The position numbers and the translations under genes are program-made. 29,974 nt of DNA from Gammaproteobacteria bacterium. GTDB taxonomy: Bacteria > Pseudomonadota > Gammaproteobacteria > SURF-13. The notes below the pieces were generated by a model. That model was given only the letters and a program-made list of their open reading frames with translations. It searched no databases and was not told where the DNA came from. Of this stretch, positions 56-29,974 are shown piece after piece. The stretch lies in contig DATMXC010000066.1 of the NCBI GenBank assembly GCA_035561915.1, positions 1-29,974 on the forward strand, given 5' to 3'. Position 1 is the first letter of the stretch. The number at the start of each line of letters is the position of its first letter.

Positions 56-850
56 TCAACTTCCCAATCGAAGCCGCTGCGCCACACGACCACCGTAATA
101 GCGCACGGTCTGCCGCAAACTGCCGTCGTTCGCGCCGAAGAAGATTTTGCGCGCCAGCATGGTCGGCGTGTCGGTGCCGAACACATCCAGGCGGCGAATG
201 CGGAATGGGTCCACGCCCCGGCGGTTGAAGCCTGGTTGAACGGAGAAGGCAGCCCGGTAGCCGGCCGCCCGCGCTGCGTCTGCCACTCGCTCGTCGTAGC
301 GCCCAAAAGGATAGGCTAGATAGAGAGTGGGTTCACCCAGCACACTCTCCAACTCGGCTCGTGAGCCGGCCAATTGATCCGCCAACGCATCGTCGTCGAG
401 AGTGGTGAGGTCGGGATGGCTGCGGGTGTGAGACTGGAAAGCGAAGCCCATGTGCCGCATGGCATCAATGTCTTCGCGGCCGAGCAGGGGATAGGTTGCG
501 CCGCTTGGGTTCTGGCTGCGGCACCATTCGTCCTGCTTGCCGATCAGACTGCTGACCAGGAATACGGTGGCCGGCCAGTTCATTTTGATGAGAATGGGGG
601 CAGCGTGCTCCAACACCCCTAGGAAACCGTCGTCGAAGGTAAGCAGAAAGCTGCCCTCGGGCAAGTTCTGCTTGCCTTCCAACCAGGCGAAAAAGTCCGC
701 GAGGGAACAGGCGCGCATGCCCTTCTCCGCAAGGCGGTACATGTGAGCGGCAAAACGCTCCGGTGACACGCAGTAACGCCGCTCCCCATCGTTATGCGCA
801 GGCCCTACGCGGTGATACATAAGTACCGGCACCCGCTGTGTTGTGTTCAT
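56..850 (-). CDS. Polysaccharide deacetylase (CE4/NodB fold), 264 aa
   Basis: Motifs LMYHRV, LLTFDDG, QSHTRSH and LAYPFG. Start moved from 1246 to the ATG at 850 (MNTTQ), which overlaps the upstream GT2 stop (ATGA). Confidence 0.9.
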   Translation of the reverse strand: MNTTQRVPVLMYHRVGPAHNDGERRYCVSPERFAAHMYRLAEKGMRACSLADFFAWLEGKQNLPEGSFLLTFDDGFLGVLEHAAPILIKMNWPATVFLVSSLIGKQDEWCRSQNPSGATYPLLGREDIDAMRHMGFAFQSHTRSHPDLTTLDDDALADQLAGSRAELESVLGEPTLYLAYPFGRYDERVADAARAAGYRAAFSVQPGFNRRGVDPFRIRRLDVFGTDTPTMLARKIFFGANDGSLRQTVRYYGGRVAQRLRLGS

Positions 851-1821
851 TCTTTTCCTCCCGAACGGTCGGCGAAGCCGACCAGTCCCCGAAACAGCCC
901 TGCCGGCAGCGTCGCGGGGAGCAGGTATTTTAGGTCCGCCGGCCGCCAAGCACGGCATGCGATGGCCTCTCGAAAGAGCTTCTGGGCATTGCCGAGGTCG
1001 CGCCTCCAGTATGCCCGGTAGGCCTCGCCCATAATCTGACCGTCCACCAGCTCGTACAGGGCATTCTTGGAAAGATGGGCCACCAGATCGCGGTGGTGAC
1101 TGACGAAATCCCGCCGCACCTGCACGGCATCCAGCACCTGCCGCCACTTGCTGGCGGAAACTTGACCGCTGCCGTGCCAGCGGTAGAAAGCCAGCACCTC
1201 GGAAACCCGGACAATCTTGCGGGTGTGTGCAAGGATGCGCAACCACAGATCGTAGTCCATGGAAGAATAGCGTCGCTCGGAGAAGCCATTAACGGCATCG
1301 ATAACAGAGCGCCGGGTGAGCGCGGCATGGATGGGCCAGGGACAGCCCCGCAGAAAGGCCGCCACCGTATCCTCCTGCTCATAGGCGGGCGGCACGTAGG
1401 GCTCGGAATTGAGGGCGTGCACCCCGACATTCTGCCAGCCGCAGTAAGCGACATCGGCCTGAGTTTCCCGCATGGCGCCCAGCAGCTTCTCCAGGCAGTC
1501 CTCCCGCCACCAGTCGTCGGCGTCGAGGAATGCGATGAATTCGCCGCGCGCGTGTTTCAAGGCCAGGTTGCGGGCCGGGTAAGGCCCCACCCGACGGGTA
1601 TGGAGCAGATGGATACGGCCGGGGTGCTGCTCGGCCAAACCTGCCAGGATGTCCGGCGAACCGTCCGAGGAACCGTCATCGACAATGATGAGCTCGATAT
1701 TGCCGTGGCTCTGCCCGAATGCCGATCTTACCGCTTCTTCCACATAGGGGGCGGCGTTGAAGCACGGCATGATCACCGATATAAGTTCGGGAGCGGAATG
1801 CTCGGCAGTCAAGGCGATCAT
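847..1821 (-). CDS. Glycosyltransferase family 2, 324 aa
   Basis: ISVIMPCFN, IIVDDGSSDGS, ARNLALKHARGEFIAFLDADD (DxD) and MDYDLWLR. Confidence 0.92.
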   Translation of the reverse strand: MIALTAEHSAPELISVIMPCFNAAPYVEEAVRSAFGQSHGNIELIIVDDGSSDGSPDILAGLAEQHPGRIHLLHTRRVGPYPARNLALKHARGEFIAFLDADDWWREDCLEKLLGAMRETQADVAYCGWQNVGVHALNSEPYVPPAYEQEDTVAAFLRGCPWPIHAALTRRSVIDAVNGFSERRYSSMDYDLWLRILAHTRKIVRVSEVLAFYRWHGSGQVSASKWRQVLDAVQVRRDFVSHHRDLVAHLSKNALYELVDGQIMGEAYRAYWRRDLGNAQKLFREAIACRAWRPADLKYLLPATLPAGLFRGLVGFADRSGGKE

Positions 1822-1825
1822 GTTC

Positions 1826-1852
1826 TTATATGGTCTGGTGTGAAATGGCCAT
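1826..1852 (-). other. 8-codon mini-ORF MAISHQTI*, homologous to the first 8 codons of the 2053-4155 gene
   Basis: 1857..1829 versus 4160..4132 on the minus strand are 24/29 nt identical. The peptides are MAISHQTI and MATTHQTI. Confidence 0.35.
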
Positions 1853-1865
1853 GGTTACTATTGCA

Positions 1866-2056
1866 TTAGGTTCTACCCATAATTTCGTCCCTGAAGCGGT
1901 GGATCCACTCACCTTCTCATTCCTGCTGAATTCATGGTCGCCTAGCGGGGTGACAACATCACCACCACTGCAATATTCGGATAGGGCCGCCTCAATACTG
2001 GTGCCTGCCGTTTTTAATGACTTGATAAAGAATTTGCGACCGGATGAGAACATCAT
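1866..2056 (-). pseudogene. Degraded sulfotransferase family 2 gene, paralogue of 12376-13065
   Basis: MMFSSGRKFFIKSLKTAGTSIEAALSEYCSGGDVVTPLGDHEFSRNEK aligns to MIISHTHKFIFIKSWKTAGTSIEAALSAHCSGDDIVTPLGDYGFNRDEK, with one codon missing. A 1-nt deletion near 1912 shifts frame; the shifted frame continues EWIHRFRDEIMGRT* (stop 1866-1868) against GEWVHK in the intact copy. The ATG overlaps the upstream stop (ATGA). Confidence 0.8.
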
Positions 2057-4155
2057 TGCATCTTCTGGCTGGGGTCATGAACCCCATGAAACAAAGTGCG
2101 GCTATTATTTGATGCACGCTCCAACCTGAGCATCGCATCACCGCTCACGTCGGATAGCTCCTGCACAGGACCGTCAGGCCACCGTATGGTCACGGACTTA
2201 GCCTTAGAATGCGGCCCCAGGCCAAAATAAAGTCGATAGTGCCCTTGAGATAAATAAGCCCCCTCGCTGGCGCCAACTTCCTGTGTCTGTCGACCTTCAG
2301 GGGTGACCACCGTAACCTGCGCACCGATCGCCTGTCGGTTGCCTGCCGCCCCGACCAAATTCAATTCAAGCCAGTGATTTTTCGCACCGACATTGCGGTA
2401 GGCAAGGAGCTTCCACTTGGGCCTGTCGTCCTTCCCCTTAACGTCTTTCGATTTGAACGGCTTCTCCCACCATCGCCATAGGGAAGGGTTATCCTCCAGC
2501 GCTATCAGCGCATGGAGGGAGCCATCATTGTACCGATCGAACCAGTTGATTATTGCAGCCTGGTACTTATTCTGTGGAAGTGACAAGAATCCCGTGGCTT
2601 CGAATTTGTGGCCCTTGTTCTGATGGAACAAGCCTTCAGGCACAGTGTGCAGGTCTGGATGGCCGTCGTTATCGTAATCGACCCATGCGGCCGCTACGCT
2701 CGCCGCGGGAAAGCCCAGTGACGACGGATCAACCGCTCTGAACCTGCCACCATCGTTGATCAGTACAGCGTTCCCCTTCTTCGAGGCGACAAACACGTCC
2801 AAATCGCCATCTCTATCAAAGTCGGCAAGAGACATCTTACCATCGAATTGCCAGTAGTCATACGTGTTGCCCTTTAAGCCGGGTTCGTCGGCTCTTTCGA
2901 ATTTCCCTCTATAAATGAATTCGCGCGAAAATTCCCCCGCCTGATTGCGATAGAGGAAATATCCTTCGTCCTCATGGGTCAGTAGATCCATGTCTCCATC
3001 CCCGTCTGCATCGAGCCAGGCGAAATCGATGAGCTGATGCTGAGGGATGTCGAGTCCGACTTTGGCCGCGACATCATCGAAGTGTCCATTGCCGTCCTGA
3101 CGGTATAGCTGTTTTGGGTAGTTGCCCGAGACATTCCCCCGGTCTTGGCAATTGATGTAAAGATCCAGCCGACCGTCTTGGTTAAAATCCACCCATTTGA
3201 CATGCCGGCCCGAGCAATCCTTCTTCTCAATGCCTACTTCGCTCGAGACTTCTCGAAACCGGTGTTTCCCCGTAGTTATCAGCAACTCGTCCTTGATTGT
3301 GCGCCTTACGCTTTCCGGAAACTCCCTGAGCGTACCGCCAAAAGCACCTCTGGAGATGAAGACATCCAACTGGCCGTCGTTGTTGTAATCAGTCCAAGCC
3401 ACGCCATGGCGATCCTGCAAGGAGAGAGAAAAAGCCTGAGTGTGGGGGGATACCTTTCGCGGACCCAGGTACACATAGGCCGACGGCAAAGCATCATCAA
3501 TATTGAAGGTAAGGGGGCCTCCTCTCGATGGGACATAGAGCGCAAGGTGTGCATCACTCAAGGCTGCAAAATCGGTGATGGTTTCGCTGACCGTACCGGA
3601 CTGGGGAGGCAGTATTTGGGTTTTGACTTGGAATCCGTTATTTCTCACGACCTCCACTCTGCTGAGAATCTTGAGATCCCCTTTTAAGGCTCCCACTTTG
3701 TTCAAGTTATGGGTACGCAGATTAAGGGTGTCACCTACCCAGTAGATGTAAAGCCCCGCCTTGTCCATATCGGGGGCTTGCATGGACTGCGCCCAGCCAG
3801 GGAAATCGCGGCTCTGATCCAGTCCCCACTCCGAAAGCACATCCCGATAGCCCCCGCGTCCATCTGCGAGCCAAAGGAACTGTTGGTAGTTATGGTTGGA
3901 TGTGTAGATGTCCAGTAGGTCATCTCCATTCGCATCCACGATGCCCAGATCGAAAATCTGATCAACCTCTTGCGAGGGCGGAGGATCTTTGACAAACCAG
4001 TTGCTCTCCGAAGCAATGAATCGAGTGACGGATGGTTTGATGTCGTCCCTGGCCGAATATGCCATGGCCAGAACAGACAACAACAGGGCGAGCAAAGTCA
4101 TCTTTTTGATGAACATGATAGATATCTTCCAGATCGTCTGGTGTGTAGTGGCCAT
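2053..4155 (-). CDS. Secreted FG-GAP/VCBS-repeat protein with C-terminal ASPIC/UnbV domain (CRTAC1-like), up to 700 aa
   Basis: Hydrophobic signal-like segment LLALLLSVLAMA. Repeats DANGDDLLDIY, DYNNDGQLDVF, DFNQDGRLDLY, DADGDGDMDLL, DFDRDGDLDVF and DYDNDGHPDL. The C-terminus NHWLELNLVG..NRQAIGAQV..LSQG..LYFGLG..RWPDG is ASPIC/UnbV-like. The start could also be the ATG at 4116. Confidence 0.9.
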   Translation of the reverse strand: MATTHQTIWKISIMFIKKMTLLALLLSVLAMAYSARDDIKPSVTRFIASESNWFVKDPPPSQEVDQIFDLGIVDANGDDLLDIYTSNHNYQQFLWLADGRGGYRDVLSEWGLDQSRDFPGWAQSMQAPDMDKAGLYIYWVGDTLNLRTHNLNKVGALKGDLKILSRVEVVRNNGFQVKTQILPPQSGTVSETITDFAALSDAHLALYVPSRGGPLTFNIDDALPSAYVYLGPRKVSPHTQAFSLSLQDRHGVAWTDYNNDGQLDVFISRGAFGGTLREFPESVRRTIKDELLITTGKHRFREVSSEVGIEKKDCSGRHVKWVDFNQDGRLDLYINCQDRGNVSGNYPKQLYRQDGNGHFDDVAAKVGLDIPQHQLIDFAWLDADGDGDMDLLTHEDEGYFLYRNQAGEFSREFIYRGKFERADEPGLKGNTYDYWQFDGKMSLADFDRDGDLDVFVASKKGNAVLINDGGRFRAVDPSSLGFPAASVAAAWVDYDNDGHPDLHTVPEGLFHQNKGHKFEATGFLSLPQNKYQAAIINWFDRYNDGSLHALIALEDNPSLWRWWEKPFKSKDVKGKDDRPKWKLLAYRNVGAKNHWLELNLVGAAGNRQAIGAQVTVVTPEGRQTQEVGASEGAYLSQGHYRLYFGLGPHSKAKSVTIRWPDGPVQELSDVSGDAMLRLERASNNSRTLFHGVHDPSQKMQ

Positions 4156-4170
4156 TGTTATTGTTGCAGC

Positions 4171-5250
4171 CTACGCTGCGCCCACAATTTCGTCGCGGAT
4201 GGCCTCCAGATAGCCGCGTCCGAAGCGCAGGTCGGGCTCGACATAGTTACCTTCCGCCCATTCGTTCCAGGCCTTGAGGAACAGAATCTTGTGCTCCGGT
4301 TGATGGTCGGCCACCTTGTCTAAGGCGTCGCGCAGGTGACGGCGGAACAGTTCGGGCGTGGATTCATGGAAAACCAGCCCGCTCATCCCGGTGCGAGGGG
4401 TATTGTCCCAGTTGGGCAGCACGCAGGGATAGTCCATGAAATCGGTTTTCTCGGCGCGCAGCAGGAACGGGATCATTTCCTCGTAGGTGTAGATGGAAAG
4501 CTGGTAACGGCCCCGCCCCAGCATGACTTTGAGCTTGGCGTCCCAGAACCGCCTGGGTATGCGCCCGTTGCGGGGTGGCAGCTTCTGCATCATGCAAGCG
4601 TCGAAACCCCGTGTGCGCGGATCCCAGCTTGGATTGAAGTGGGACACGCCGACGAGATAGAGTCCGTTCAGTCCCGCCTGATGCGCCCGCTCACGCCAAT
4701 AGTCCGTCACTCGCTGTACGTCCGGGATGTCATCGGGTTTGTACACGAGAAAGAGCGGCTTGCCATCCACGGTGATGTAACGCGGATCGCTGAAGGCCTT
4801 GAGCAGAAAATCGAAATGGGCCGCGTGATCAGCCATGCCCGAGTACACCTGCTCGATCAATACCCTGTCCGGCGTGCCCTGCCAGATGCTGTTCCAACTA
4901 TGGTTGGCCCAGCACAGGCAGAATGGGAAATCGGGCTCGCCCGAGGCCAGCACCTCATTGAATGGACGCTCCAGGATGCGCCGTCCGCCGAACCAGTAGT
5001 GGTAATAGCAGAAGCCCTCCACGCCGTATTCCCGCGCCAGCTCTGCCTGGGCCGCGCGCGCCTCGGGCAGCCGCAGATCGTAGAACCCCAGGTCTGCGGG
5101 AATGCGTGGCTGATCGTGGCCGCGGTAGAGCGGCTTGGCCTTGGCCACGTTGGTCCACTCGGTGAAGCCCTTGCCCCACCAAGCGTCGTTTTCCGGCGTG
5201 GGGTGAAATTGAGGCAAGTAGTAGGCGATGACGCGCGCTTGCTTATTCAT
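4171..5250 (-). CDS. WbsX-family / glycoside hydrolase family 99-like domain protein, 359 aa
   Basis: YYLPQFH..ENDAWWGKGFTEW, DLGFYDLR, GFCYYHYWF, FCLCWANHSW, PNWDNTPR and AWNEWAEG. Confidence 0.9.
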   Translation of the reverse strand: MNKQARVIAYYLPQFHPTPENDAWWGKGFTEWTNVAKAKPLYRGHDQPRIPADLGFYDLRLPEARAAQAELAREYGVEGFCYYHYWFGGRRILERPFNEVLASGEPDFPFCLCWANHSWNSIWQGTPDRVLIEQVYSGMADHAAHFDFLLKAFSDPRYITVDGKPLFLVYKPDDIPDVQRVTDYWRERAHQAGLNGLYLVGVSHFNPSWDPRTRGFDACMMQKLPPRNGRIPRRFWDAKLKVMLGRGRYQLSIYTYEEMIPFLLRAEKTDFMDYPCVLPNWDNTPRTGMSGLVFHESTPELFRRHLRDALDKVADHQPEHKILFLKAWNEWAEGNYVEPDLRFGRGYLEAIRDEIVGAA

Positions 5251-5347
5251 TTTGTGTGCAGAACCTGACAGGTCATTCTCGTTAATCTTGCAAGCATTGT
5301 GCCTACGCCCAGAGTCGCCTTAATGACATCGGGAGGCGCGGCTCAAG

Positions 5348-6466
5348 CTACGATTCCCGCGGAAACAGGCATTCCGATACCCGGCCGACCCAGCCCTTAT
5401 CGCCCGACGGGATCGTGCCGCGCATGAGTATCGAACGCTTGTTGAGCTTTGCCCAATTGCGAGCCACATTGCCCTCCGTATAAATAAGAACAATGATTCT
5501 CCTGTCCGGGTGCAACTCGAGTCCACGCGTGAATGCGCTGGCTCTTAAATGGGTTTCATAATGGCCGAGCGCATTCGCCTGCATCCTGGCGATCTGATCC
5601 GCGCCCATCTCCAGAACGGAGCGGATCTTATTGATCAGATCGTCCTTATCGTCGAAAGCTATGCAGTTTTCCATGTGGGTGAGTTTCGGATCGAACCATT
5701 CCGGGTAGTTGGTGATCGGGACGGTTCCCACGGCCATGGCCTCAACGATGTTATGGCACATCGGCATCACGATCCCGGGCGGACCCAGGAAAAAATCGGC
5801 CTTTGCCAGGTTGCGCAACCATTCGCGATCGTCGATCCACATCCTGCTGGTGTCCACAATCACGCACTTGTTGGTATAGGCGGAGTCATGCAGTTCACTG
5901 AGCGTGGACAGGTCTTTTACCAGGATCGCATCGTCGCCCATGCGCTCCAGAACGGTATTGATGACCTCCAGGCGCGGGAGCTTTGCTTTCGGGTAGCGGA
6001 TGCGATTTCGCCCATAGTTCTTAGTGTCGCCCGAAAAGAAAACCCGAACCTTTTTTTCGCTGCCCCTGCATTGCTGCAGGCGCTGCTCAAGATCGGGCCC
6101 ACTGTGTACCGGATGCACCGGGAACGGCATGATGACCGGGTTCTTGAAGCAGTAAGACGAAAACAAGTCATCCCGCACCTCGATCTTCTTGCGCCATTCG
6201 TATTTACCAAGCGCCTTGTCTTCCTTGTCGTAGAGATAGATCCAGTCTTCCGGATTAGTGGGAGGGCTATCTATCAGTGTCAGGCCTTCCAGCGAGAAAA
6301 CCAACTTCCCGTATTTTTCCAGACTGTCCGGCGCCAGGTTGTTGAACAGGCTTATGCGATAGCCCGTGGAGGAAAAGGCATTCAGCAAGGAATACAACAG
6401 ACGTCCCTGTTCCAGCAGGATTTCCTTTCCCGAGAACTTGGCGAATAAAAATTTCGGATTCGTCAT
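5348..6466 (-). CDS. Hypothetical glycosyltransferase, exostosin/GT47-like GT-B C-terminus, 372 aa
   Basis: Long ORF in operon orientation. VFFSG...RLEVI...ADFFLGPPG..PMCHNIVEAMAVGTVPI resembles the exostosin F.L.P.G.....R..EA...G.IP pattern. The CDS is secure; the function is tentative. Confidence 0.6.
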   Translation of the reverse strand: MTNPKFLFAKFSGKEILLEQGRLLYSLLNAFSSTGYRISLFNNLAPDSLEKYGKLVFSLEGLTLIDSPPTNPEDWIYLYDKEDKALGKYEWRKKIEVRDDLFSSYCFKNPVIMPFPVHPVHSGPDLEQRLQQCRGSEKKVRVFFSGDTKNYGRNRIRYPKAKLPRLEVINTVLERMGDDAILVKDLSTLSELHDSAYTNKCVIVDTSRMWIDDREWLRNLAKADFFLGPPGIVMPMCHNIVEAMAVGTVPITNYPEWFDPKLTHMENCIAFDDKDDLINKIRSVLEMGADQIARMQANALGHYETHLRASAFTRGLELHPDRRIIVLIYTEGNVARNWAKLNKRSILMRGTIPSGDKGWVGRVSECLFPRES

Positions 6467-6566
6467 CTTGGGTTCTTGATGGTTAGTAACAATGGCACGG
6501 CCGACCGGTCAGGCCCGTACTCATTCGCGACGCAGGGTCATCGGCACCGGGAGGTGCGCTCGACGC

Positions 6567-7862
6567 TCACTCCACAATGAAGCACTCACTGACCAAGTCC
6601 TCTTCGTTGTAAGTCAGCCCCTGCTTGGACTTGCAGTCATATACCCGCTTCCCGACAGTGGTGGCGATGAGCTGAGCCGCCGCAGTTTCCCATTCCGGGC
6701 TGGGATCATCACAAGCATAAGCGTCGGCTTGGCCTTCCGCCACTAGACACATTGCCAGCGCGCGGCTGGCCGGCGTCGGCCCCTGTTTTTTTTGCGCCGA
6801 GATGGCGGTTGTTTTCGGCCCGAGGTTTTCGCGCACATCCAGTCGTCGTGGCTCCGCGGCGCCTTCCATCTTGAAGGCGCCTTTGCCTATTCTCGCGTAG
6901 TAGACAGTGTCCATGACGGGCGCATAGACCACCCCATAGATTGGGGCGCCGTCCTGAACGAGAGCGATATTGATGGTAAATGCCCCATCCGCTCCGAGAA
7001 ATGCCCCTGCCCCGTCGAGCGGGTCAACCAGCCATAGGTGATTCCACTTCGCTCGCTCGGAATAAGGAACAGCACTGCTCTCGCGAGAGAGTACGGGTAT
7101 TTGGGCATTCAATTTTTTCAGGCCGTCCACGAGCACTTTGTGGGCAGCCCGGGTGGCTCTTTGCAACGCGCCTGCGTCCCCACCGCGCAGCGCATACAGC
7201 GCCTTCCCCACCACACCCGTCGCCTGCCCCTGTTGGTAGGCCCGCAAGGTCGCCTGTCCCGCCCGCTTGGCCACCGCAACAATGTCATCGATATTCATCC
7301 AAGTGATCTGGGTGACGTTGGCTTTCGGGAAAGGAATCTCGGGCACGGGCTGGCCGAGGAAGGGGCACAGCTTTTCCCAGCCTTCGCCGCCGATCACGTT
7401 GATCACGAGCAAGTCCTGCGGCCGGCCCTTGAAATACTCCAAGGCGCCGCTGACGAACTTTTCATAGCCGCTCAGGAATTTCTGCTCGTCATACACGGTG
7501 CATCCGTACAAGTCTATGAAGAGCTGGTTATGGGCCTCGGTCTGTTTTTCCGCGAGGCGCTCCGTGAACTGCTTCTTGCAGGACTTCAGCCAACCATCCC
7601 TATCTCTGATCGTCAGGATGAACTTTGAGTTTGGATACCGTGCATCGAGCTCGCGATAGAAACTGGGGATGGGCGTGTCGGTGAGCGCATCGTACGCGTC
7701 TACCACCTCCAGATCGACAGAGGACAGGTCTCCGGCGCGGTAGTTTTCGATCCCCGGATAGTCCTTGGTCTTGTAGCCCAAAATTCCGAGGGCTTGAGCC
7801 AGGCTGGTCGTGCCGGTCTTGGAAAGGCCGATGCCGAAGATTTTGTGGTTAGCGGTTCCCAT
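6567..7862 (-). CDS. Fusion: sulfotransferase (Sulfotransfer_4-like, about aa 1-188) + CysQ/inositol monophosphatase-like domain with degenerate active site, 431 aa
   Basis: N-domain: GIGLSKTGTTSL (5'-PSB loop) and IRDRDGWLKS (3'-PB). C-domain from 7298: AGQA..AY, WLVDPLDG, FTINIALVQDGAPIYGVVYAP, CLVAEGQAD and WETAAA. Confidence 0.85.
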   Translation of the reverse strand: MGTANHKIFGIGLSKTGTTSLAQALGILGYKTKDYPGIENYRAGDLSSVDLEVVDAYDALTDTPIPSFYRELDARYPNSKFILTIRDRDGWLKSCKKQFTERLAEKQTEAHNQLFIDLYGCTVYDEQKFLSGYEKFVSGALEYFKGRPQDLLVINVIGGEGWEKLCPFLGQPVPEIPFPKANVTQITWMNIDDIVAVAKRAGQATLRAYQQGQATGVVGKALYALRGGDAGALQRATRAAHKVLVDGLKKLNAQIPVLSRESSAVPYSERAKWNHLWLVDPLDGAGAFLGADGAFTINIALVQDGAPIYGVVYAPVMDTVYYARIGKGAFKMEGAAEPRRLDVRENLGPKTTAISAQKKQGPTPASRALAMCLVAEGQADAYACDDPSPEWETAAAQLIATTVGKRVYDCKSKQGLTYNEEDLVSECFIVE

Positions 7863-8002
7863 CGGACCTGTTCCAGGTATGTGTGAGACAGTTGCAATTG
7901 TAATGTCTCTGATTCTCTGTCGGGTTGCCCCTGACCTTGACTACGAAACGTTTATTTACTGAGCTTTCAGTATTTGGATGACAGTTTGTCGTCAAAATCG
8001 AA

Positions 8003-8090
8003 ATCCCCTGTCCCCCTTCGCTGAAGGGGGAACCAGCTATCCGGCGCTGGTTAGAAGCCCCCCCCTTTGCAAAAGGGGGAACGGGGGGAT
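8003..8090. repeat. 88-bp multi-hairpin (cloverleaf) palindromic element
   Basis: Outer stem ATCCCC 8003-8008 / GGGGAT 8085-8090 encloses three hairpins: CCCCCTTC-gct-GAAGGGGG (8012-8030), AACCAGC-8nt-GCTGGTT (8031-8052) and CCCCCTTT-gca-AAAGGGGG (8061-8079). Confidence 0.7.
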
Positions 8091-8184
8091 CTGCCATGGC
8101 ATCAACCATTTGCTGAATTCCCAATAGGAAGTTAGGTGTCACGGCCATTTGCCCCTACCGCGAACCCGATGTTGTCAACGGATG

Positions 8185-23018: not shown

Positions 23019-23931
23019 ACCCCATGTCGCGGGCCGCATCCAGGACCGACGGCAGCACCCGTTCAATGCGCTCCCGGTTTCGCCCAGCCTTCCACTTATC
23101 AAGGCGGATCTCGGAGAATGCATTGTAGGGACGCGAGATGACCGTCGCGCAGTGCCGTTCGAGCTCCGGGGTAAACGACAGCCCGCAGGCGTCGAACGCT
23201 CGGCGGAATCCGGCAACCGGGTCGCGCACCAGGTCCTCGTATACGATCTCGATCCACTGGCGCGCAGGAACCGCCTTGCGGGCATCAAGAATCGCCCGAT
23301 TCATCGCGGTATACTGGAACGCACAAACCTCCTCGATGGACGCGTTCAGGTATTGGCGCCATCCCTCTGCCAGGAAGAAGCACCAGCGCCGGTATTTCCC
23401 ACCGTCAATGGCCACCTCTGCCGGAAGTCCCGCCGACCAAGTGGCGAACTGGTCCGGTCTATCCCAACCCTCGATAAGCGAATTGATGTTGTCGCCGGGG
23501 CTGCGCTTCACGTATACGAAGTAGGCATCCGGGAACAATGCCTGCAAGTAGCGCACGCACAGGCCGTTCTGGTTGTTCTTGTCCACGAATCTGGTACGGC
23601 CGCTCCAGACGTAGAAGTAGCGGGCCACAAAGTCCCTGTCGCGCTCGCTCGCATCTGCCGCGGAGAGCGCGTGGCTGCTCCAGCCTTTCTCCGCAAGGGG
23701 ATGCAGCCCAGCCCAGAAGTCATGGGTCTCGCGCTGGATGGTGCCCAACTCCGGTGATTCGGAAAAGGTCTTGTACACCAGGGTAGTGCCGGCGCGGCTG
23801 CAACCCACGACAAATATCGGTTTCAACGCAGGGATGGGGCGCAGATCCCAATATACGCCCCGGAAAGCCCTGAGCGTGGCCAGCCCGTGGTGGCGTAACG
23901 TCTTTTCCACCTTTGTCCAGAAATCGTTCAT
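23008..23931 (-). CDS. Sulfotransferase (Sulfotransfer_3-like), about 307 aa
   Basis: PIFVVGCSRAGTT (5'-PSB), FVDKN, YVKRSPGDNINS (3'-PB) and IVYEDLVRDP. The start could be 23964. Confidence 0.85.
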   Translation of the reverse strand: MNDFWTKVEKTLRHHGLATLRAFRGVYWDLRPIPALKPIFVVGCSRAGTTLVYKTFSESPELGTIQRETHDFWAGLHPLAEKGWSSHALSAADASERDRDFVARYFYVWSGRTRFVDKNNQNGLCVRYLQALFPDAYFVYVKRSPGDNINSLIEGWDRPDQFATWSAGLPAEVAIDGGKYRRWCFFLAEGWRQYLNASIEEVCAFQYTAMNRAILDARKAVPARQWIEIVYEDLVRDPVAGFRRAFDACGLSFTPELERHCATVISRPYNAFSEIRLDKWKAGRNRERIERVLPSVLDAARDMGYAF

Positions 23932-24003
23932 ACCTGCATTCCGCTGGGAAGGCTCAGAAGACATTCGGCGCGGGGACGTCGGTGCTGCGTATGCAACCGG
24001 CCA

Positions 24004-25281
24004 TCAGACGCCCTTCCCTAATCTTGATGTGCGCGTGAGCGCGCTCCCCCACTCCACTGGCTTCTCCTGCTCTTTTCCGGCAAGCCGCTGAAGCACCAGC
24101 ACCTTGAGAATCACCACAGCTGCAATCAGGTGGTAGAACAGATCGAAGTAGGCCTGGCTGATAAATGCCCCGCCCACGGCATAGCCCACGAGGGCCACTT
24201 GGATCATGGCGGCAAGGTCCCCCATCCATCTGGCATCCAGGTCCTTATTGACCTTGCGACGTATCCACGAGGCGGTCATCCAGGTGGTTATTCCAAGCAG
24301 CAGGAACAAGCCGAGGCCCACGTAACCGTGCTCGCCTAGCATCTGGAAATAGATGCTGTGCGCTGCCCTGTGGCGGCCGGCGGTGATCTCAAACCCGCCG
24401 CCTACGATGGGGCGCTCATTGGCGATCTCTATCGCGAACTTCCAAGCCTCTACGCGACCCATCGCGGAGGCATCCTCCTCGTAGGTCTCGATGGTGTGCA
24501 TGCGCGCCTTCCACTCCTCCGGCATGAAGCTGATGGCAGAGTAAACGGTCAGTCCGAGAACAATCGAGAGCATCACCTTTTTCCGGGTCTTGAGGAAGAG
24601 CATGAGAAGCACGGCCGCGAGACCGAGAAACGCCCCCCGCGAGTGCGTGCCCACCACCGCAAACGGGGTAAGAATCATGGCCGCCATCAGACCGTAACGG
24701 AGCCATCGGCTCTCGGTCTTGAGCTGCAGGTAGCGCATGAGGGGAATGGTCATGTTCAGGGCAGTGCCTATCTCCCCGTTCGTCCCGATGAGCGTGCCCT
24801 GGGGCCCAAGCACATTATGGGCACCGCCGGTAGTAATCGTAAAAATCCCACCTTTGACGCCATAAAAACCGAGCGACAGTACAATAACCCAAATGAGGAG
24901 GTCCAGACGCTTGGGATCATTGATAAGCACCAACGTGACAAAGACGAACAGTTGCACCTTCCAGACCTTGTCCCACTTGAACCAGGCCGCCTCCGGAATC
25001 ACTGCAAAGAATGTCGTAAAGAACATCCACATGACGAAAATCAGCAGCAGAACGCTCTCGCGTGTCCATGGGATGCGCTTTGACTCCTTGGACGCAAACA
25101 GCGCCACCAAGGTGGTGACTGCCACAATTTCGGCGAAGGGAAAATCGTAGGCGAAGCCCCATGCCAGCCGGTGCGGGTTCATGTACCCCAGCCAGGACCA
25201 CACCAGTACCCCGATGTAGGGTTCCCGAAGAATAAAGAACAGGCTTGCAAACACGACGCCTGTGACGAAGATATCACGCAA
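24004..25281 (-). CDS. Putative O-glycosylation ligase (Wzy_C/O-antigen ligase-like), exosortase A system-associated type, about 425 aa
   Basis: N-terminus (M)RDI...PYIGVLVWSWLGYMNPHRLAWGFA, THSRGAFLG, SAMGRVEAW, GGGF and AHSIYFQMLGEHGYVGL. The TTG start is 8 nt from GGAGG. Confidence 0.87.
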   Translation of the reverse strand: MRDIFVTGVVFASLFFILREPYIGVLVWSWLGYMNPHRLAWGFAYDFPFAEIVAVTTLVALFASKESKRIPWTRESVLLLIFVMWMFFTTFFAVIPEAAWFKWDKVWKVQLFVFVTLVLINDPKRLDLLIWVIVLSLGFYGVKGGIFTITTGGAHNVLGPQGTLIGTNGEIGTALNMTIPLMRYLQLKTESRWLRYGLMAAMILTPFAVVGTHSRGAFLGLAAVLLMLFLKTRKKVMLSIVLGLTVYSAISFMPEEWKARMHTIETYEEDASAMGRVEAWKFAIEIANERPIVGGGFEITAGRHRAAHSIYFQMLGEHGYVGLGLFLLLGITTWMTASWIRRKVNKDLDARWMGDLAAMIQVALVGYAVGGAFISQAYFDLFYHLIAAVVILKVLVLQRLAGKEQEKPVEWGSALTRTSRLGKGV

Positions 25282-25313
25282 ACTCAAACCCTCCGCTTAC
25301 CACCCGATATGAC

Positions 25314-26174
25314 TCATGCGCGAGTCTCAGTACCGGCGGCCCGCTCCGGATTCACCCCAACGGGCTCCGGTCTTGGAAACCATCGAATGCGATGCGGCAA
25401 GCGAAGACCGCATAGCAGGCCATTTCTGATCCGCCACGCAAGTCGCCGCTCATGTCTCCAGCCTCGGTCCTTGACTTGATAAAGACGTCCTTTGCCCGGC
25501 TGCTTCTGACCAAAGCGCTCACCGCGCGCGAGGCGCTCCATCAGTTCGGCGTATCCCAACGCGCTATCCCTTATGGCGCGCCAGAACAAGGTAAGCTCCT
25601 CGTCGCCCTCCCGAACCTCCGGACATATATGCGCAATCAGGTCACCCGAGTCGATGCCTTGGTCGATGAAATGCAGGGTGCAGCCAACCTTCTCCGGCTC
25701 GCCATTGTGAAGCGCCCAGAACGTGCAGTCCGCCCCGCGGTACTCTGGGGAGAGCCCTCCGTGCAGATTGACGATCCCGAGCCGTCCCTTAGTAAGCAAG
25801 TCACCGCGGATGAGGGAGGTGCCAAACACCGCAATCACATCCGGTTGCAGGTTCTGTGCCAGCCTTACTACATCGGGGTGATTGATATGCGGCACCTCCA
25901 CCAGCAAGTCCGGCCGGGCAAGAAACGGAGTCCGGCTGCCGAAGAAGAATTTGGCTTCGCCGCCTCCGGTATAACGCCTGCGATCCCTCAACCAGCGCCA
26001 GCCTTTGCGCCAGAGCTTGACAGGATTGAGCAGACGCCGTAATTTTTTACCGTTCCACTGACTACCGGTTTCCTGCACGATCGCAACCGCGCGGGCGCTT
26101 TCGCAGAGCATGTTGGCGACATAGAGATGCCGGGGTGAGCGGCCGCACAGTATCAGTACCGATAAGTCAGACAT
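25314..26174 (-). CDS. N10-formyl-THF-dependent formyltransferase (Formyl_trans_N), 286 aa
   Basis: IVNLHGGLSPEYRG (catalytic N and H) and TLHFIDQGIDSGD (catalytic D). Confidence 0.87.
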   Translation of the reverse strand: MSDLSVLILCGRSPRHLYVANMLCESARAVAIVQETGSQWNGKKLRRLLNPVKLWRKGWRWLRDRRRYTGGGEAKFFFGSRTPFLARPDLLVEVPHINHPDVVRLAQNLQPDVIAVFGTSLIRGDLLTKGRLGIVNLHGGLSPEYRGADCTFWALHNGEPEKVGCTLHFIDQGIDSGDLIAHICPEVREGDEELTLFWRAIRDSALGYAELMERLARGERFGQKQPGKGRLYQVKDRGWRHERRLAWRIRNGLLCGLRLPHRIRWFPRPEPVGVNPERAAGTETRA

Positions 26175-27396
26175 GTGACATCACCTCCGGCGCGGCGTGG
26201 CCGACCTTGGCAACCGGCGGCACGGTCATGTCGGCCATATCCATCATCAGGGCATCGGCAAAAAATTTCGCCGCCCAATTGGGGAATTCAAACATGGAGT
26301 ACCGTCCCCAGATTGGCGCAGAACCGGCCACTGCACCGCGAAATGTAGGATCCGAGTCGGTCAGCCTGTGGTTGCGCTTGAGATAGCTCAATCCGTTGCG
26401 AGCGTGCGCGCGCAAGTCTTCCGCCCCGCACTCGCGGGCGAGCCGTAGCCAGTTCAATCCCATTTGAGCCACACCGGTCAAACAACAGTAGCTTGCACCG
26501 GCCTGCCAATTCTCGTCATAGGTGCCGGCCAGCCAGCCGTCGGGCCGCTGCACCCGCGCCACGGCGCGGGCCGCTTTCTCCGCCGCCGCAAGATAGCGTT
26601 CTTCGCCAAGCAGTACCCCGCTCTCCAGGAAGCCGCGGATGGCATAAGCGATAGTATGAGTGAAAGGCAGCCGCCCCGGGGTGAAGGCGTTGTTGGCGAA
26701 CCAGCCAGTGGCTGTTTGTTGCGCCAACGCCCAATCGAGATTACGCAGTGCGGCGGCTTTGAGTTTTGCCTCATCTGCGATCAGGGCGGTGGCGAGCAAC
26801 GCCCAGGTGCCACGGGTGTTGTAGGTGTGAGGTACGCCATTATGCTCGAAGCGCCGCCAGCAACCGTCTTCATCCTGCTGCCGGGCCAGCCAGTGACCTG
26901 CCTTGACTGCGGCGTCGAGACATTCCTGCCGCCCCAATTGCGTGTATCCGGCGATCATGCCATGCATGATTTGGCCGGTATTGAAAATCACCGGATGACT
27001 ATCAGACTCGCCGAAATGTCCGGGAAAGGCGCCGTCTTCCTGCTGAAGCGACAACTCCCAATCGATGATTCGGTGGGCGCGGCCGATCAGATCAGGCCGA
27101 TCCAACAGTTTAGCGGCTGCCAGAAATGTTTCGATGATATAGCCGCTGGTTTCCGGATAACTGGGCAGCCAGCCGTCCTCAAAGCTCCAGCCGGCGGATA
27201 CGCCGCCTGCATCCGCCTTGTCCGCCCGCACATCCTGCGCGCGGCACAGCCAATCTATAGCAGCCCGGAGATGTTCCAGGTGATCTTGTTCCGGCTGATT
27301 ACCCGGCGCCATCAGGTCCTGCATGATCAGGCGGAGATGACGCGGGCGCCACGGTTTATAGCGGAAGGGTAATGCGGCAATTTTTACAATATCCAT
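26167..27396 (-). CDS. QW-repeat alpha/alpha toroid protein (prenyltransferase/squalene-cyclase-like repeats), function unknown, 409 aa
   Basis: Repeated QxxDGxW/F motifs: QQEDGAF, QQDEDGCW, QQTATGWF and QRPDGWL. Also SYPETSGY and FPNWAAKFF. Confidence 0.72.
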   Translation of the reverse strand: MDIVKIAALPFRYKPWRPRHLRLIMQDLMAPGNQPEQDHLEHLRAAIDWLCRAQDVRADKADAGGVSAGWSFEDGWLPSYPETSGYIIETFLAAAKLLDRPDLIGRAHRIIDWELSLQQEDGAFPGHFGESDSHPVIFNTGQIMHGMIAGYTQLGRQECLDAAVKAGHWLARQQDEDGCWRRFEHNGVPHTYNTRGTWALLATALIADEAKLKAAALRNLDWALAQQTATGWFANNAFTPGRLPFTHTIAYAIRGFLESGVLLGEERYLAAAEKAARAVARVQRPDGWLAGTYDENWQAGASYCCLTGVAQMGLNWLRLARECGAEDLRAHARNGLSYLKRNHRLTDSDPTFRGAVAGSAPIWGRYSMFEFPNWAAKFFADALMMDMADMTVPPVAKVGHAAPEVMSHV

Positions 27397-27416
27397 AGGC
27401 GAGATGCTTGTCCGAT

Positions 27417-28829
27417 TTAATTGTATCCGAAAGCCGCCTGCGCGGATTCCAGGCCGGCCGGCAAGGGGACATGGCTCACCACATAACGGTATTTTCCGGA
27501 CACCTCCACGGGGATGCGTTCCATGAGCCGTATGGTCACACGCACAGAGTCTCCCATGCGCGCCCTGATTCCGCTTTCAATTTGGCCCTGCCGATCCGGG
27601 CCGAAGCCCCGGCCCGGCACCACCAGAACTTCCATGTCCTCAGGCGTATGCTGGATCAGTTTGAATTCCGCCACCCCTTCCACCGCGCGCAGCACGTAGA
27701 TGAGGGCAAGCGCGTGCATGATGGTGCCGTCCGCGCGCACCACGAAATCCGTGCTGCGCCCGGCCACTTCGGCGATCACGTGCAGCCCGCGTTCGCCGGC
27801 GCAGGCACCGTCTGCCATTCGTACCATGTCGCCGGTGCGGTAGCGGATGAAAGGCTGGGCCTCCGAGCACAAGCCGGTGATGACGGCTTCGCCCATCTCA
27901 CCCGGGCGGACCGGGCTTCCGCTTGCATCCAGTACCTCCAAAAGGATGCTTTCACTCATGAGCAGTAGTTGGCCCCCAGGGGCTTCGTGGGCGGTGAAAC
28001 CGATATCGCGGCTGCCGAATTCGTTGGCGGCGGGCACACCGAATACTTCCTGGATAAGCTCCCGTTGATAGGGATAGAGCGGTTCGCCGGTGGTGCATAC
28101 CACCTTCAAGCCGGGCAGCTTGAGTCGCACGCCGCGATCGCGGGCGTGCGCCGCCAGTAGCGCGATGCTGCTCGCGTAACCGTAGATGCACTTGGGCTGA
28201 TAGGCTTGTATGGCCTGTATATAAGCGTCCATGTTGGCCGGAGACATCTCGAAGGCATTCAGCACCAACTGGTTCAGCAGCCGATCGCGCAGGGTTTTGA
28301 TCCGGTCGGTTTTGTTAAGCTCCACCGGCGCGCCCCACAGATACACTTCCCGGTCGCCCACGTCCACGCCCCACCAGCGCCGCGCACGGATGCGGCCCGC
28401 GGCGTCGGAGGCCTGGCGGCTCCGGCCGTAGTAAAAAATCAGCGGTTGTCCGCTGGAGCCGCCGGTGTTGTATTTGAACGCGCCGCCGGGTACGCCCGCC
28501 CAGCGGATCGCCTCGCCATGTTCTTGCGCGTCCTGTTTGGTCATGGTGGGCAGGTGGCGCAAATCGGCCAGGGTCAACGGCGCCGAATCGGGCGACACAT
28601 CCAATCCGGCGGCGCGGATCCGTTCTGCGTGCCAGGGGCTGTGCGCCAACGCGGTCTGTAGCAATATTTTCAGCTTTTTAAGTTGCAGTTGTTCGATGGC
28701 TACACGAGACCACCATTGGGTTTGCTCCAGTTCAGCGAGGTAGCGAAACGTGGGCCGTTTGAGCAGCCTCTCGTGCAGGGGGTAAATAACGCGGCGGGCG
28801 AACAAGGAACTGACCATAGTCGTTTGCAT
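27417..28829 (-). CDS. Phenylacetate-CoA ligase / CapK-like adenylate-forming enzyme, 470 aa
   Basis: YNTGGSSGQP (P-loop), NEFGSRD, FIRYRTGD and GRSTD. Start reassigned to the ATG at 28829, overlapping the GT4 stop (TAATG). Confidence 0.88.
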   Translation of the reverse strand: MQTTMVSSLFARRVIYPLHERLLKRPTFRYLAELEQTQWWSRVAIEQLQLKKLKILLQTALAHSPWHAERIRAAGLDVSPDSAPLTLADLRHLPTMTKQDAQEHGEAIRWAGVPGGAFKYNTGGSSGQPLIFYYGRSRQASDAAGRIRARRWWGVDVGDREVYLWGAPVELNKTDRIKTLRDRLLNQLVLNAFEMSPANMDAYIQAIQAYQPKCIYGYASSIALLAAHARDRGVRLKLPGLKVVCTTGEPLYPYQRELIQEVFGVPAANEFGSRDIGFTAHEAPGGQLLLMSESILLEVLDASGSPVRPGEMGEAVITGLCSEAQPFIRYRTGDMVRMADGACAGERGLHVIAEVAGRSTDFVVRADGTIMHALALIYVLRAVEGVAEFKLIQHTPEDMEVLVVPGRGFGPDRQGQIESGIRARMGDSVRVTIRLMERIPVEVSGKYRYVVSHVPLPAGLESAQAAFGYN

Positions 28830-29974
28830 TAGGCAAACCGGCCCCGTGGCGCCGGTTGCTTGTCCTTCGGTGCGTTTCCGGTAAGCGCGAAAAATTCTTC
28901 CACCAGCACGTTGACCCGACTGTCCCAGGAATTGGCCCTGGCATAGTCCACGATGGCGCTGCGATCCCAACTCTTGCGCAAGGCATCGGCAAGGGCGTGC
29001 TCCAGCGCCGGGCCATCGCCAAATTCGACTATCGTGCCTAACTCGGGGCTTGTCACCACTTCGCGGTTGCCGCCCACATCGGTGGTGACCACGGGTAACC
29101 CGCAGGCCATGGCTTCGAGAAACACGTTGGCCCAACCCTCGTTGCGCGTGGCAAGCACAAAGACATCCGCTGCGGACAGGGGCAGCTTCAACTCCTCGGG
29201 GGGTAATGCCCCAAGAAAGATGACATGGTCCGCGAGGCCCAATTGTGCGACCTGCGCCCGCAGCTTTTCGCCCCAGTCCCCTTCCGGGCTGGCGCCTCCT
29301 ACAATCAGGTAAATCAGATTGGGGAATTTTTTCACCAGTACCGGCAGCCGCTCGATGACCCGATGAAATCCTTTGCGTTCCGCCAGCGCGCCCACCGAAA
29401 CCAGTATCGGGGCATCCGGTGCCAGGTTGAGGCTGCGTCGTGCCTCGCCCCGGTCGATCGGGCTGAACTTGACGGTATCTACCCCGTTGCCCACCACGCG
29501 AATTTTGTCGGCATCGGCACCTAAACTTACTACGTGACGCTTGAGCGATTCAGACACCGAGAACACCCGCGCCGCTCCGGAAAGCGCGGCGACGATACCC
29601 CTGCGCCGGCCCGGTTCCCTCGACAGGGGGACTTCGGTGCCACGCAGGGTAATCGTTACAGGCACTTTGAGCCATTTACCGAGCAGCGTGGCGGCATAAC
29701 CGTCGGGGTAGGCAAAATGCGCGTCAATCAAGTCAAATGCAAAACGCCGCTTCAGGCGCAGCAACGTCGTCAGGCTCCCCACTGCCATGAACAGGCCGTC
29801 CAGGGATTTGAACAGCCCCGGCACGGAAAAAAAGCGTGGATGCAGGACTTCGATGCCGTCCTGAATTTCATGCCGGGGGGCGTCGGGACGAAAGTGAGGG
29901 CGCCATCTGCGGATCAGCCTTTGCAGCGGAAACCATGGCACGGGCACCACCACGGTAAGGGGCAATACCTTACC
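28829..29974 (-). CDS. Glycosyltransferase family 4 (5' end outside the window)
   Basis: IDAHFAYPDG, TLRG, VGNGVD, ERKGFH and NEGWANVFLEAMACGLPVV (E-X7-E). The frame is open to the window edge. Confidence 0.9.
   Translation of the reverse strand, partial: GKVLPLTVVVPVPWFPLQRLIRRWRPHFRPDAPRHEIQDGIEVLHPRFFSVPGLFKSLDGLFMAVGSLTTLLRLKRRFAFDLIDAHFAYPDGYAATLLGKWLKVPVTITLRGTEVPLSREPGRRRGIVAALSGAARVFSVSESLKRHVVSLGADADKIRVVGNGVDTVKFSPIDRGEARRSLNLAPDAPILVSVGALAERKGFHRVIERLPVLVKKFPNLIYLIVGGASPEGDWGEKLRAQVAQLGLADHVIFLGALPPEELKLPLSAADVFVLATRNEGWANVFLEAMACGLPVVTTDVGGNREVVTSPELGTIVEFGDGPALEHALADALRKSWDRSAIVDYARANSWDSRVNVLVEEFFALTGNAPKDKQPAPRGRFA

Follow-up and report, generated by a model that had tools for sequence, protein, structure and literature searches.

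What polymer is specified by a gene cluster in which sulfotransferases, glycosyltransferases (GTs), deacetylase-like proteins and an ABC exporter stand together, and to what larger system does such a cluster belong? The question is raised by contig C66, which was analysed at its whole length of 29,974 nucleotides and is referred to here as the window. It is the longest contig in the metagenome-assembled genome (MAG) of an uncultured, small-genome proteobacterium from freshwater sediment, a draft of 1.79 Mb in 283 contigs which is 91% complete with 2.6% estimated contamination. An interpretation made without database searches (the sequence-only reading) had proposed a multiply sulfated, acylated, glycosaminoglycan-like glycan made inside a PEP-CTERM-type locus. 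Taken as a whole, the evidence is best explained if the contig represents that distal part of an exosortase-A (XrtA/PEP-CTERM) exopolysaccharide locus which specifies the glycan, an explanation that we regard as probable, and it is quite probable that the locus makes a sulfated surface glycan.

Pfam and NCBIfam scans covered the 26 open reading frames (ORFs) of the window, and likely true gene starts were set from gene overlaps and ribosome-binding sites; several lie later than the longest-ORF start. These scans recovered the CysQ-like domain, the two deacetylase folds, the MBOAT unit, the formyltransferase, the two methyltransferases, Wzm/Wzt and the ligase that had been listed from the sequence alone.

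The exosortase A system and the layers of the window

The components of an exosortase system are present on other contigs of the genome. Exosortase A (TIGR03109, 358 bits against a 208-bit cut-off) is fused to EpsI on contig C99, in a block which runs XrtA-system polysaccharide deacetylase, FemAB, stp1, XrtA/EpsI, amidotransferase and stp3, all above cut-off. PrsK and PrsR lie next to each other on C272 (917 and 759 bits), and at least two PEP-CTERM proteins with VPEPATL...RR tails exceed their cut-off, a count which is a floor because the MAG is incomplete. Of the families that make up the XrtA/PEP-CTERM system, TIGR03109, TIGR03097, TIGR03006, TIGR03019, TIGR03087, TIGR03108, TIGR04063 and TIGR02915/6 all occur in the genome above cut-off. 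Searches for exosortase, prsK/prsR, PEP-CTERM proteins and genes for the supply of 3'-phosphoadenosine-5'-phosphosulfate (PAPS) were thus positive throughout.

The window is tied to this block by gene order in relatives. In a 99% complete genome of the same genus (G007, contig C38) the order XrtA-AsnB-stp3-GT4-CapK-toroid-Fmt-ligase is contiguous, with Sulfotransfer_3 (ST3), DUF2334-like and GT2 genes further on, which links the window to XrtA, upholds the earlier placement inside a PEP-CTERM-type locus and makes the GT4 gene at the right-hand contig end the one that directly follows stp3 in the XrtA operon. The proteins of this genome are 97% (AsnB), 92% (stp3), 90% (GT4), 92% (CapK-like), 95% (toroid) and 80% (Fmt) identical to those of the window and C99 over the first part of the order, and 55% (ligase), 63% (ST3), 55% (DUF2334-like) and 67% (GT2) identical in the distal genes. 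At the DNA level identity stands at 91.6% over 25429-29974 and at 63-74% to the left of 25429. A glycan-specific variable region therefore begins at about 25429, inside the fmt gene, and takes in the ligase gene; the TIGR03097 ligase, with 55% identity against 80-97% for its neighbours, co-varies with the variable genes that follow it.

More distant relatives preserve the same arrangement. The XrtA-to-ligase order is found in a Thiobacillus MAG, in another betaproteobacterial MAG the sulfation module described below comes directly after the ligase, and the XrtA locus of the cultured Nitrosococcus wardiae contains ST3, DUF2334-like, GT2, GT4, CapK, toroid, Fmt, Wzm and Wzt genes. The ST3-DUF2334-GT2 trio is accordingly conserved in both the same-genus genome and N. 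wardiae, and the CapK-like/toroid/Fmt trio recurs in XrtA loci of Beta- and Gammaproteobacteria and of Desulfacinum (for example at 13459-16911 of locus L099). The curated XrtA family set contains no model for the sulfotransferases or for the DUF2334-like, CapK-like, toroid or Fmt-like proteins, and the searchable literature yielded no relevant study linking exosortase/PEP-CTERM systems with sulfotransferases or sulfation.

The window can be divided into three layers. The first, at 25.4-30 kb, is conserved in the genus and holds a GT4, a CapK-like ligase, a toroid protein and a formyltransferase-like protein. The second, at 13.3-25.4 kb, is hypervariable, begins at the TIGR03097 protein (whose gene is present in a single copy in the assembly) and further holds the ST3/DUF2334-like/GT2 trio, which is typical of XrtA loci, a low-GC islet and an MBOAT O-acylation unit. 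The third, at 1-13.3 kb, is a horizontally exchanged mosaic cassette which comprises a Sulfotransfer_2 protein (ST2), Wzm, Wzt, a methyltransferase, WbsX-type and GT2 transferases, a fusion of a Sulfotransfer_4 domain with a pseudo-CysQ domain together with its GT-B partner, a CE4 deacetylase and an FG-GAP propeller.

The cassette, which the sequence-only reading missed, was recently exchanged and is not native to the locus of this lineage. DNA identity to a Thiobacillus MAG is 88-90% over positions 1-1889 and 4140-7844 (89.8% over the GT2 and CE4 genes at 56-1821), and the ST2 protein is 88% identical to the copy in that MAG, while the XrtA-core proteins of the same MAG are 58-70% identical. 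Positions 10788-13290 are 93.5% identical to a JGI metagenome contig, and 1890-4139, which carries the propeller and a relic, is an insertion relative to the Thiobacillus MAG. The intervening stretch at 7850-10788 (the Wzt C-domain, the methyltransferase and the second WbsX gene) has no close match, although its flanks are 88-93% identical to other contigs, and a recombination breakpoint falls at the junction of the wzt ATPase and C-domain, at about 10790. The right-hand junction of the cassette lies at about 13290, inside an FG-GAP relic: DNA like that of the related locus L097 ends at 13290, and a second freshwater-sediment population which matches 13.3-27 kb at 95-99% identity diverges exactly at 13292 and lacks the cassette. 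Logan contigs, assembled independently from the source run, span 13290, the low-GC islet and 25.4 kb and show no mismatches there, so that the joins did not arise as an error of the assembler. The fusion is absent from 19 other genomes of the order to which the window belongs, the matches there being ordinary CysQ.

The sulfation module marked by the fusion was found in 36 related loci of Beta- and Gammaproteobacteria and Desulfobacterota, in which the fusion is accompanied by the GT-B partner in 28 cases (directly adjoining it; several of the remaining loci are cut by contig ends), by ST2 in 20 and by the propeller, which often adjoins ST2, in 17. Relatives with the same sulfation genes have either Wzm/Wzt or a Wzx flippase as exporter, so that the module is independent of the export route. 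Toxin-antitoxin pairs (MNT/HepT and PIN/Phd) also occur inside related cassettes (L004 1814-2466; L098 1086-5210), once between wzm and wzt.

Sulfotransferases, the CysQ-like fusion and PAPS supply

Pfam, motifs and a comparison of the window with itself agree with the earlier count of three intact sulfotransferases of three families and one relic. All three intact enzymes keep the 5'-phosphosulfate loop (GLSKTGTTS, KTAGTS, SRAGTT) and the R...S 3'-phosphate motif, and in the sulfotransferase domain of the fusion K15, T16, G17, T18, S20, R86, W91 and S94 are invariant among the 120 homologues analysed. Topology prediction gives no transmembrane helix or signal peptide for the sulfotransferases, the glycosyltransferases or the CE4 deacetylase, which fits sulfation at the cytoplasmic face, the site of PAPS, before export. 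In the self-comparison residues 1-49 of the intact ST2 protein recur in the relic at 1913-2056, and residues 2-132 of the propeller recur in the relic at 13248-13619; the FG-GAP propeller and ST2 thus form a duplicated pair of which each copy has lost the opposite gene (1890-4139 and 13248-13619).

The ST3 gene overlaps the DUF2334-like gene by 11 nucleotides, and the two are co-conserved with the Asp/His motifs of the latter kept. The structural look-alikes of the DUF2334-like protein belong to the DUF2334/Polysacc_deac_1/GH57 group (TM scores of 0.55-0.74). Conservation across 120 homologues reaches at least 95% in its ESDDWG and HGxEH motifs and at several further Arg, His and Glu positions. 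This pattern matches an Asp-His-His metal site and makes the protein a candidate deacetylase or hydrolase of the metal-dependent kind. When 300 genomes were sampled evenly across the class, 10 carried the family; every one of these belongs to the 78 exosortase-positive genomes, and in 3 of the 10 carriers the gene lies 9-14 kb downstream of XrtA. This profile of co-occurrence with exosortase is sharper than that of Sulfotransfer_3, which as a whole family is modestly enriched (about 62 of the 78 positive genomes against 99 of the 222 others, counted by hand in genomes which are not independent). The DUF2334-like family has no NCBIfam model and could serve as a marker of XrtA systems.

The fusion joins its sulfotransferase to a domain (residues 192-430) which is homologous to the phosphatase CysQ (PDB 3b8b, E 1.5e-38) and scores 165 bits with TIGR01331, under the 229-bit cut-off. 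At least 755 database proteins are homologous to the fusion, and both domains are present in all of the best 120, which were those analysed. Fusions are carried by Thiobacillus, Hydrogenophilales, Burkholderiales, Chromatiaceae and Ectothiorhodospiraceae, and also by isolates of Methylotuvimicrobium/Methylomicrobium such as Methylotuvimicrobium sp. KM1 and Methylomicrobium sp. wino1, by the cultured Desulfacinum infernum DSM 9756 and by Desulfobacula. The literature searched contained no description of a sulfotransferase-CysQ fusion.

The sequence-only reading had recognized a domain like the phosphatases of 3'-phosphoadenosine 5'-phosphate (PAP), and the CysQ fold is indeed present; the implied working phosphatase is not. 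The domain resembles 3b8b in fold, in homology and in its DPLDG core and W-x-TAA segment, but the SEE, DPLDGT and WDTAAG motifs of CysQ are SRE, DPLDGA and WETAAA in the window (R260, A285 and E392). In the 120 homologues the position of the catalytic Glu is occupied by R (91), that of the Thr by E (66) or A (34), and that of the Asp by Q (64), E (27) or H (18). The family accordingly departs from CysQ in having SR-x, DPLDG[E/A] and W[Q/E/H] in nearly all members, always behind a Sulfotransfer_4 domain. The flanking residues W277, D280, D283, G284, C372, E390 and A394-396 are near-invariant. Since the metal and catalytic residues are replaced throughout the family while their flanks are conserved, the domain is a conserved pseudo-phosphatase. 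A working PAP phosphatase is ruled out by the 3b8b alignment, by the family-wide substitutions and by comparison with the canonical CysQ that the genome also encodes (contig C237, 324 bits), in which SEE, DPLDGT and WDTAAA are intact. Nucleotide binding, or a scaffolding role for the attached sulfotransferase, would be a likelier function than PAP hydrolysis. A 99-residue ORF (7849-8148) lies upstream of the fusion, and relatives have an unannotated ORF of 100-110 residues in the same place.

The genome contains a PAPS pathway, as the proposal of sulfated products supposes. PAPS synthesis is represented by a single 599-residue fusion of ATP sulfurylase (Sat) and APS kinase (contig C10, 6224-8020; APS kinase 200 bits), and CysD (434 bits) is found on C8 adjoining a CysH fragment (C8 1854-2237). 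This fragment carries the CC...CxxC Fe-S cluster cysteines and the ECGLH motif, as in APS reductases, so that sulfate assimilation need not consume PAPS, which would be left free for sulfuryl transfer.

The predicted product and its rivals

The pathway proposed here, every chemical step of which is predicted, as is the product, from gene content, would begin at the cytoplasmic face, with a heteroglycan that the GT2, GT4, WbsX and GT-B enzymes build on undecaprenyl phosphate and that the cytoplasmic CE4 enzyme de-N-acetylates. The three soluble sulfotransferases would sulfate the glycan with PAPS from the Sat/APS-kinase fusion at up to three kinds of position, which are probably different because the enzymes come from three different families. 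The chain would be methyl-capped and then exported by Wzm/Wzt through recognition of the cap, after which the MBOAT unit would attach acyl esters to it on the outer side of the membrane and the TIGR03097 protein, in the role of a ligase or a polymerase, would pass the polymer to an acceptor. That the acceptor of sulfation is a glycan is suggested by the gene context, in which the sulfotransferases stand amid glycosyltransferases and an exporter. A sulfated glycan is supported by intact soluble sulfotransferases in a GT-rich cluster with an exporter, by the recurrence of the module and by the PAPS route. What therefore stands of the multiply sulfated, acylated, glycosaminoglycan-like polymer proposed earlier is a sulfated, methylated and probably O-acylated glycan.

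The export step has a precedent in the ABC-transporter O-polysaccharide pathway of Escherichia coli O8 and O9a, in which Wzm/Wzt with a cap-binding C-domain works with the WbdD terminator. The window similarly has Wzm, Wzt with PF14524 and a methyltransferase next to wzt, and the Wzt C-domain and the methyltransferase are exchanged as one recombination unit, which fits the same logic of cap recognition. The window locus differs in that its acceptor may not be lipid A-core, its chain is predicted to be sulfated, and no homologue of the WbdD kinase or coiled coil has been shown.

Several points weigh against this account. The link between C99 and C66 is made by synteny in relatives, with no assembled join. 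Across 22-27 kb the word depth of the source run drops from about 12 to 7.5-9, probably through GC bias, although strain mixture could have the same effect. The window has neither an undecaprenyl phosphate priming transferase nor a nucleotide-sugar gene, the rest of the genome not having been searched for a priming transferase. The acceptor specificity of the sulfotransferases cannot be read from their sequences, sequence search gives no usable solved relatives of ST2 or ST3, and Sulfotransfer_3, the TPST/RaxST family, includes protein tyrosine sulfotransferases and so favours a non-glycan acceptor.

A further point is that two unrelated glycans might be specified side by side, at a hot spot of glycan-gene exchange. 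One would be an XrtA polymer that uses the ligase, ST3, the DUF2334-like protein, GT2 and CapK-toroid-Fmt; the other would be a sulfated O-antigen-like chain made by the Wzm/Wzt cassette and joined to lipid A-core by a WaaL encoded elsewhere. Such an arrangement would account for the abrupt changes in identity at 25.4 and 13.3 kb, for the absence of the cassette from same-genus and same-order genomes and for the distance of about 21 kb between cassette and ligase in the Thiobacillus MAG, and it agrees with the presence of a second Wzy_C-like gene on C91 and of a Wzt with a C-terminal binding domain, the mark (established for E. coli O9a) of an O-polysaccharide-type ABC exporter. It is nevertheless judged unlikely, because in the unrelated Betaproteobacteria, methanotrophs and Desulfacinum no more than 10 kb separates the fusion module from CapK-toroid-Fmt, from a TIGR03097 paralogue or from both, because in one genome the module has a dedicated TIGR03097 copy in addition to the first, because the Wzm/Wzt genes of N. 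wardiae lie inside its XrtA locus, and because the ligase co-varies with the variable region.

If instead some or all of the sulfotransferases acted on acceptors other than glycans, these could be PEP-CTERM proteins (by tyrosine sulfation), lipids or small molecules, the last being the substrates of the solved Sulfotransfer_4 relatives, SgdX2 and a Schistosoma enzyme. This is improbable given that all three genes are embedded among glycosyltransferases and the exporter and are co-oriented with them, that the ST3-DUF2334-GT2 and fusion-GT-B pairings are conserved, and that the window has no PEP-CTERM gene.

It remains to weigh the comparison with glycosaminoglycans (GAGs), under which the product would be a true GAG analogue with a hexosamine-uronic acid backbone, laid down by an exostosin-like enzyme, N-deacetylated, and N- and O-sulfated in the manner of heparan sulfate. 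The protein that had been called exostosin-like is the GT-B partner of the fusion, and it matches the exostosin model only below threshold (E 4e-3, 16.8 bits where the cut-off is 33.4). Among 26 members of its family, weak Pfam matches to Exostosin_GT47 occur in 18, but the family matches RXYLT1_C (21), Glyco_trans_1_2 (19) and Glycos_transf_1 (16) as often. The AlphaFold model (pLDDT 91.7, pTM 0.90) has a GT-B fold of two Rossmann domains whose best matches in a Foldseek search of PDB and Swiss-Prot models are glycogen synthase, PglA, WaaG, MshA and PimB; GT4/GT5 enzymes rank first and exostosin-like 3 (EXTL3) is 40th. These three lines of evidence reject the exostosin assignment in favour of a generic GT-B enzyme.

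The GAG comparison fares no better elsewhere in the window, in which there is no GAG synthase (EXT GT47+GT64, KfiA/KfiC, PmHS, KfoC or HAS, and hence no hyaluronan, chondroitin or heparosan synthase), no GT64/GT45 match and no dehydrogenase, and in which the Pfam/NCBIfam scans gave no UDP-glucuronate supply gene or C5-epimerase; the WbsX and GT2/GT4 content resembles that of an ordinary heteropolysaccharide. In its favour are the two deacetylase-fold enzymes beside sulfotransferases, with the overlap of the ST3 and DUF2334-like genes, two nucleotide-diphosphate-sugar (NDP-sugar) dehydrogenases on other contigs, and the N-/O-sulfated "GAG-like" material of the extracellular polymeric substances in granular sludge, for which the genes are not known (PMC10483923). 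On balance a GAG analogue is very unlikely.

That the contig is an assembly or binning chimera of two organisms, as the 88-93% identity of the cassette to Thiobacillus-type contigs, the fragmentation and estimated contamination of the MAG and the depth changes along the contig might suggest, is scarcely credible in view of the independent assembly, whose contigs run mismatch-free across 13290, 17-22 kb and 25.4 kb, the 92% identity of the right-hand end to the same-genus genome (which also rules out, for the right part, the mis-binning suspected from the lack of the fusion in same-order genomes) and the otherwise continuous GC and depth.

The sulfated surface glycan in an XrtA locus that is preferred here may be compared with two bacterial sulfated polysaccharides whose genes have been described. 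The sulfated capsule of Vibrio sp. KMM 8419 is associated with an ABC transporter, sulfotransferases and PAPS genes (PMC11641403), and a similar case is reported for Cobetia marina KMM 1449 (PMC11766843). The Vibrio locus and the window share GTs, several sulfotransferases, an acyltransferase, an ABC exporter and PAPS supply in a proteobacterium, along with strain-variable regions and signs of horizontal transfer. The Vibrio locus differs in its KpsMT-type export, in having cysDNC inside the locus and in its solved product structure, while the window locus, known from genes alone, has Wzm/Wzt with Wzt_C, unlinked PAPS genes, an XrtA system and the pseudo-CysQ fusion. Synechan of Synechocystis sp. 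PCC 6803 is a genetically defined bacterial sulfated exopolysaccharide whose cluster (xss), of a kind stated there to be unknown outside cyanobacteria (PMC8205485), likewise has two sulfotransferases of different subfamilies among its glycosyltransferases, but it is Wzx/Wzy-dependent, cyanobacterial and plasmid-borne and has neither an exosortase link nor a CysQ-like fusion.

Together, the locus and the 36 related ones delimit a sulfation module that is portable and linked to exosortase systems, and in which two unstudied families are found, the sulfotransferase/dead-CysQ fusion and the DUF2334-like enzyme. Because the module occurs in sulfur-, ammonia- and methane-oxidizing bacteria, some of them culturable, the question of sulfation is directly testable, and polysaccharide sulfotransferases are also of biotechnological value. 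By chemical measurement, sludge granules and natural biofilms contain sulfated extracellular polymers, the genes for which are stated to be unknown (PMC10483923). A much bolder proposition, which we hold to be speculative and rather improbable, is that sulfation is a widespread and unrecognized trait of the exosortase-type biofilm and floc polysaccharides of Proteobacteria in sediment, soil and wastewater, conferred by an exchangeable module (the fusion with GT-B, ST2 with the FG-GAP propeller, and ST3 with the DUF2334-like enzyme), and that TIGR03097 proteins attach the sulfated chains to PEP-CTERM proteins. If this were true, the result would be a bacterial counterpart of proteoglycans, and the missing genes for the "sulfated GAG-like" polymers of granular sludge would have been found.

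Gene inventory and minor observations

The features of the window, nearly all of which lie on the minus strand, are collected in Table 1.

Table 1. Genes and gene relics of the window, listed from the right-hand to the left-hand contig end.
Feature	Coordinates	Strand	Evidence or remark
GT4 glycosyltransferase, 5' end cut by contig end	28829-29974	-	PF00534, 131 bits
CapK/PaaK-like adenylate-forming enzyme	27417-28829	-	NCBIfam PaaK/F390-type matches
Alpha/alpha-toroid protein (SQHop_cyclase_C / GH127-like)	26167-27396	-	Pfam
Formyltransferase-like protein (Formyl_trans_N)	25314-26174	-	PF00551, 60.7 bits
Exosortase-A-associated O-antigen-ligase/Wzy_C-type membrane protein (TIGR03097)	24004-25287	-	517 bits against 188-bit cut-off
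Sulfotransfer_3 sulfotransferase, soluble	23008-23964	-	PF13469, 86 bits; SRAGTT loop
DUF2334/GH57/CE4-clan membrane protein, 417 residues	21765-23018	-	N- and C-terminal transmembrane helix; weak Pfam match
GT2 glycosyltransferase, third of ST3-DUF2334-GT2 trio	20831-21763	-	PF00535, 112 bits
GT4, low-GC islet	19513-20586	-	GC of islet 0.41-0.44 against 0.58 for genome
FkbM methyltransferase, low-GC islet	18575-19444	+	Pfam
MBOAT/DltB-like protein	16179-17729	-	PF03062, 109 bits; TIGR04091, 187 bits, sub-cut-off
Anchored DltD/DUF1574-like protein, 409 residues	14950-16179	-	Nearest named clusters DltD/DUF1574 (0.88-0.89), a lead only
Anchored alpha/beta hydrolase	13913-14926	-	Topology
Relic, N-terminal 131 residues of FG-GAP/ASPIC gene	13248-13619	-	40% identical to 2053-4155
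Sulfotransfer_2 sulfotransferase, soluble	12376-13065	-	PF03567, 42 bits; KTAGTS and RNPWDRMIS motifs
Wzm permease	11452-12270	-	PF01061, 48 bits
Wzt ATPase with C-terminal carbohydrate-binding domain	10178-11449	-	PF00005, 80 bits; PF14524 (Wzt_C), 67 bits
Class I S-adenosylmethionine-dependent methyltransferase directly after wzt	9316-10365	-	PF13489, 83 bits
WbsX-family glycosyltransferase-like protein, copy 2	8185-9306	-	PF14307, 482 bits; 50% identical to copy 1
Sulfotransfer_4 domain fused to degenerate CysQ-like domain	6567-7862	-	Sulfotransfer_4, 120 bits, N-terminal half
Divergent GT-B glycosyltransferase, 372 residues, conserved partner of fusion	5348-6466	-	AlphaFold and fold matches
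WbsX-family protein, copy 1	4171-5250	-	PF14307, 479 bits
FG-GAP/ASPIC-UnbV beta-propeller, secreted or anchored	2053-4155	-	Signal-like N-terminus
Relic of second Sulfotransfer_2 gene, N-terminal 49 residues	1913-2056	-	69% identical to 12376-13065
GT2 glycosyltransferase	847-1821	-	PF00535, 131 bits
CE4 polysaccharide deacetylase, cytoplasmic	56-850	-	PF01522, 88 bits; no signal peptide

The methyltransferase after wzt, which has a counterpart at the same place in relatives, is a candidate chain-end capping enzyme on the evidence of its family and position. The propeller, the alpha/beta hydrolase, the DltD-like protein of 409 residues and the DUF2334-like protein are anchored or secreted by topology. 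The Nitrosococcus homologue of the CapK-like enzyme carries PF27533 (CapK_C).

A stretch of 845 bp at 17730-18574, beside the low-GC islet, contains no convincing gene, and the ORFs at 17755-18243 and 1075-1869(+) have no Pfam or NCBIfam family matches and look spurious. A depth hole of 186 bp at 22057-22241 lies within a stretch of 0.67 GC.

The gene cluster runs past the left contig end at position 1, and beyond this point relatives carry two GT2 genes and a Sulfatase-family gene, to which the Thiobacillus MAG adds a Sulfotransfer_3 gene. The large Sulfatase-family (PF00884) protein is found at the far end of related cassettes (L004 19502-21296, L097 17047-19182 and L100 13717-16113), is fused to GT2 once, and in the present locus would sit past the left end of the window.

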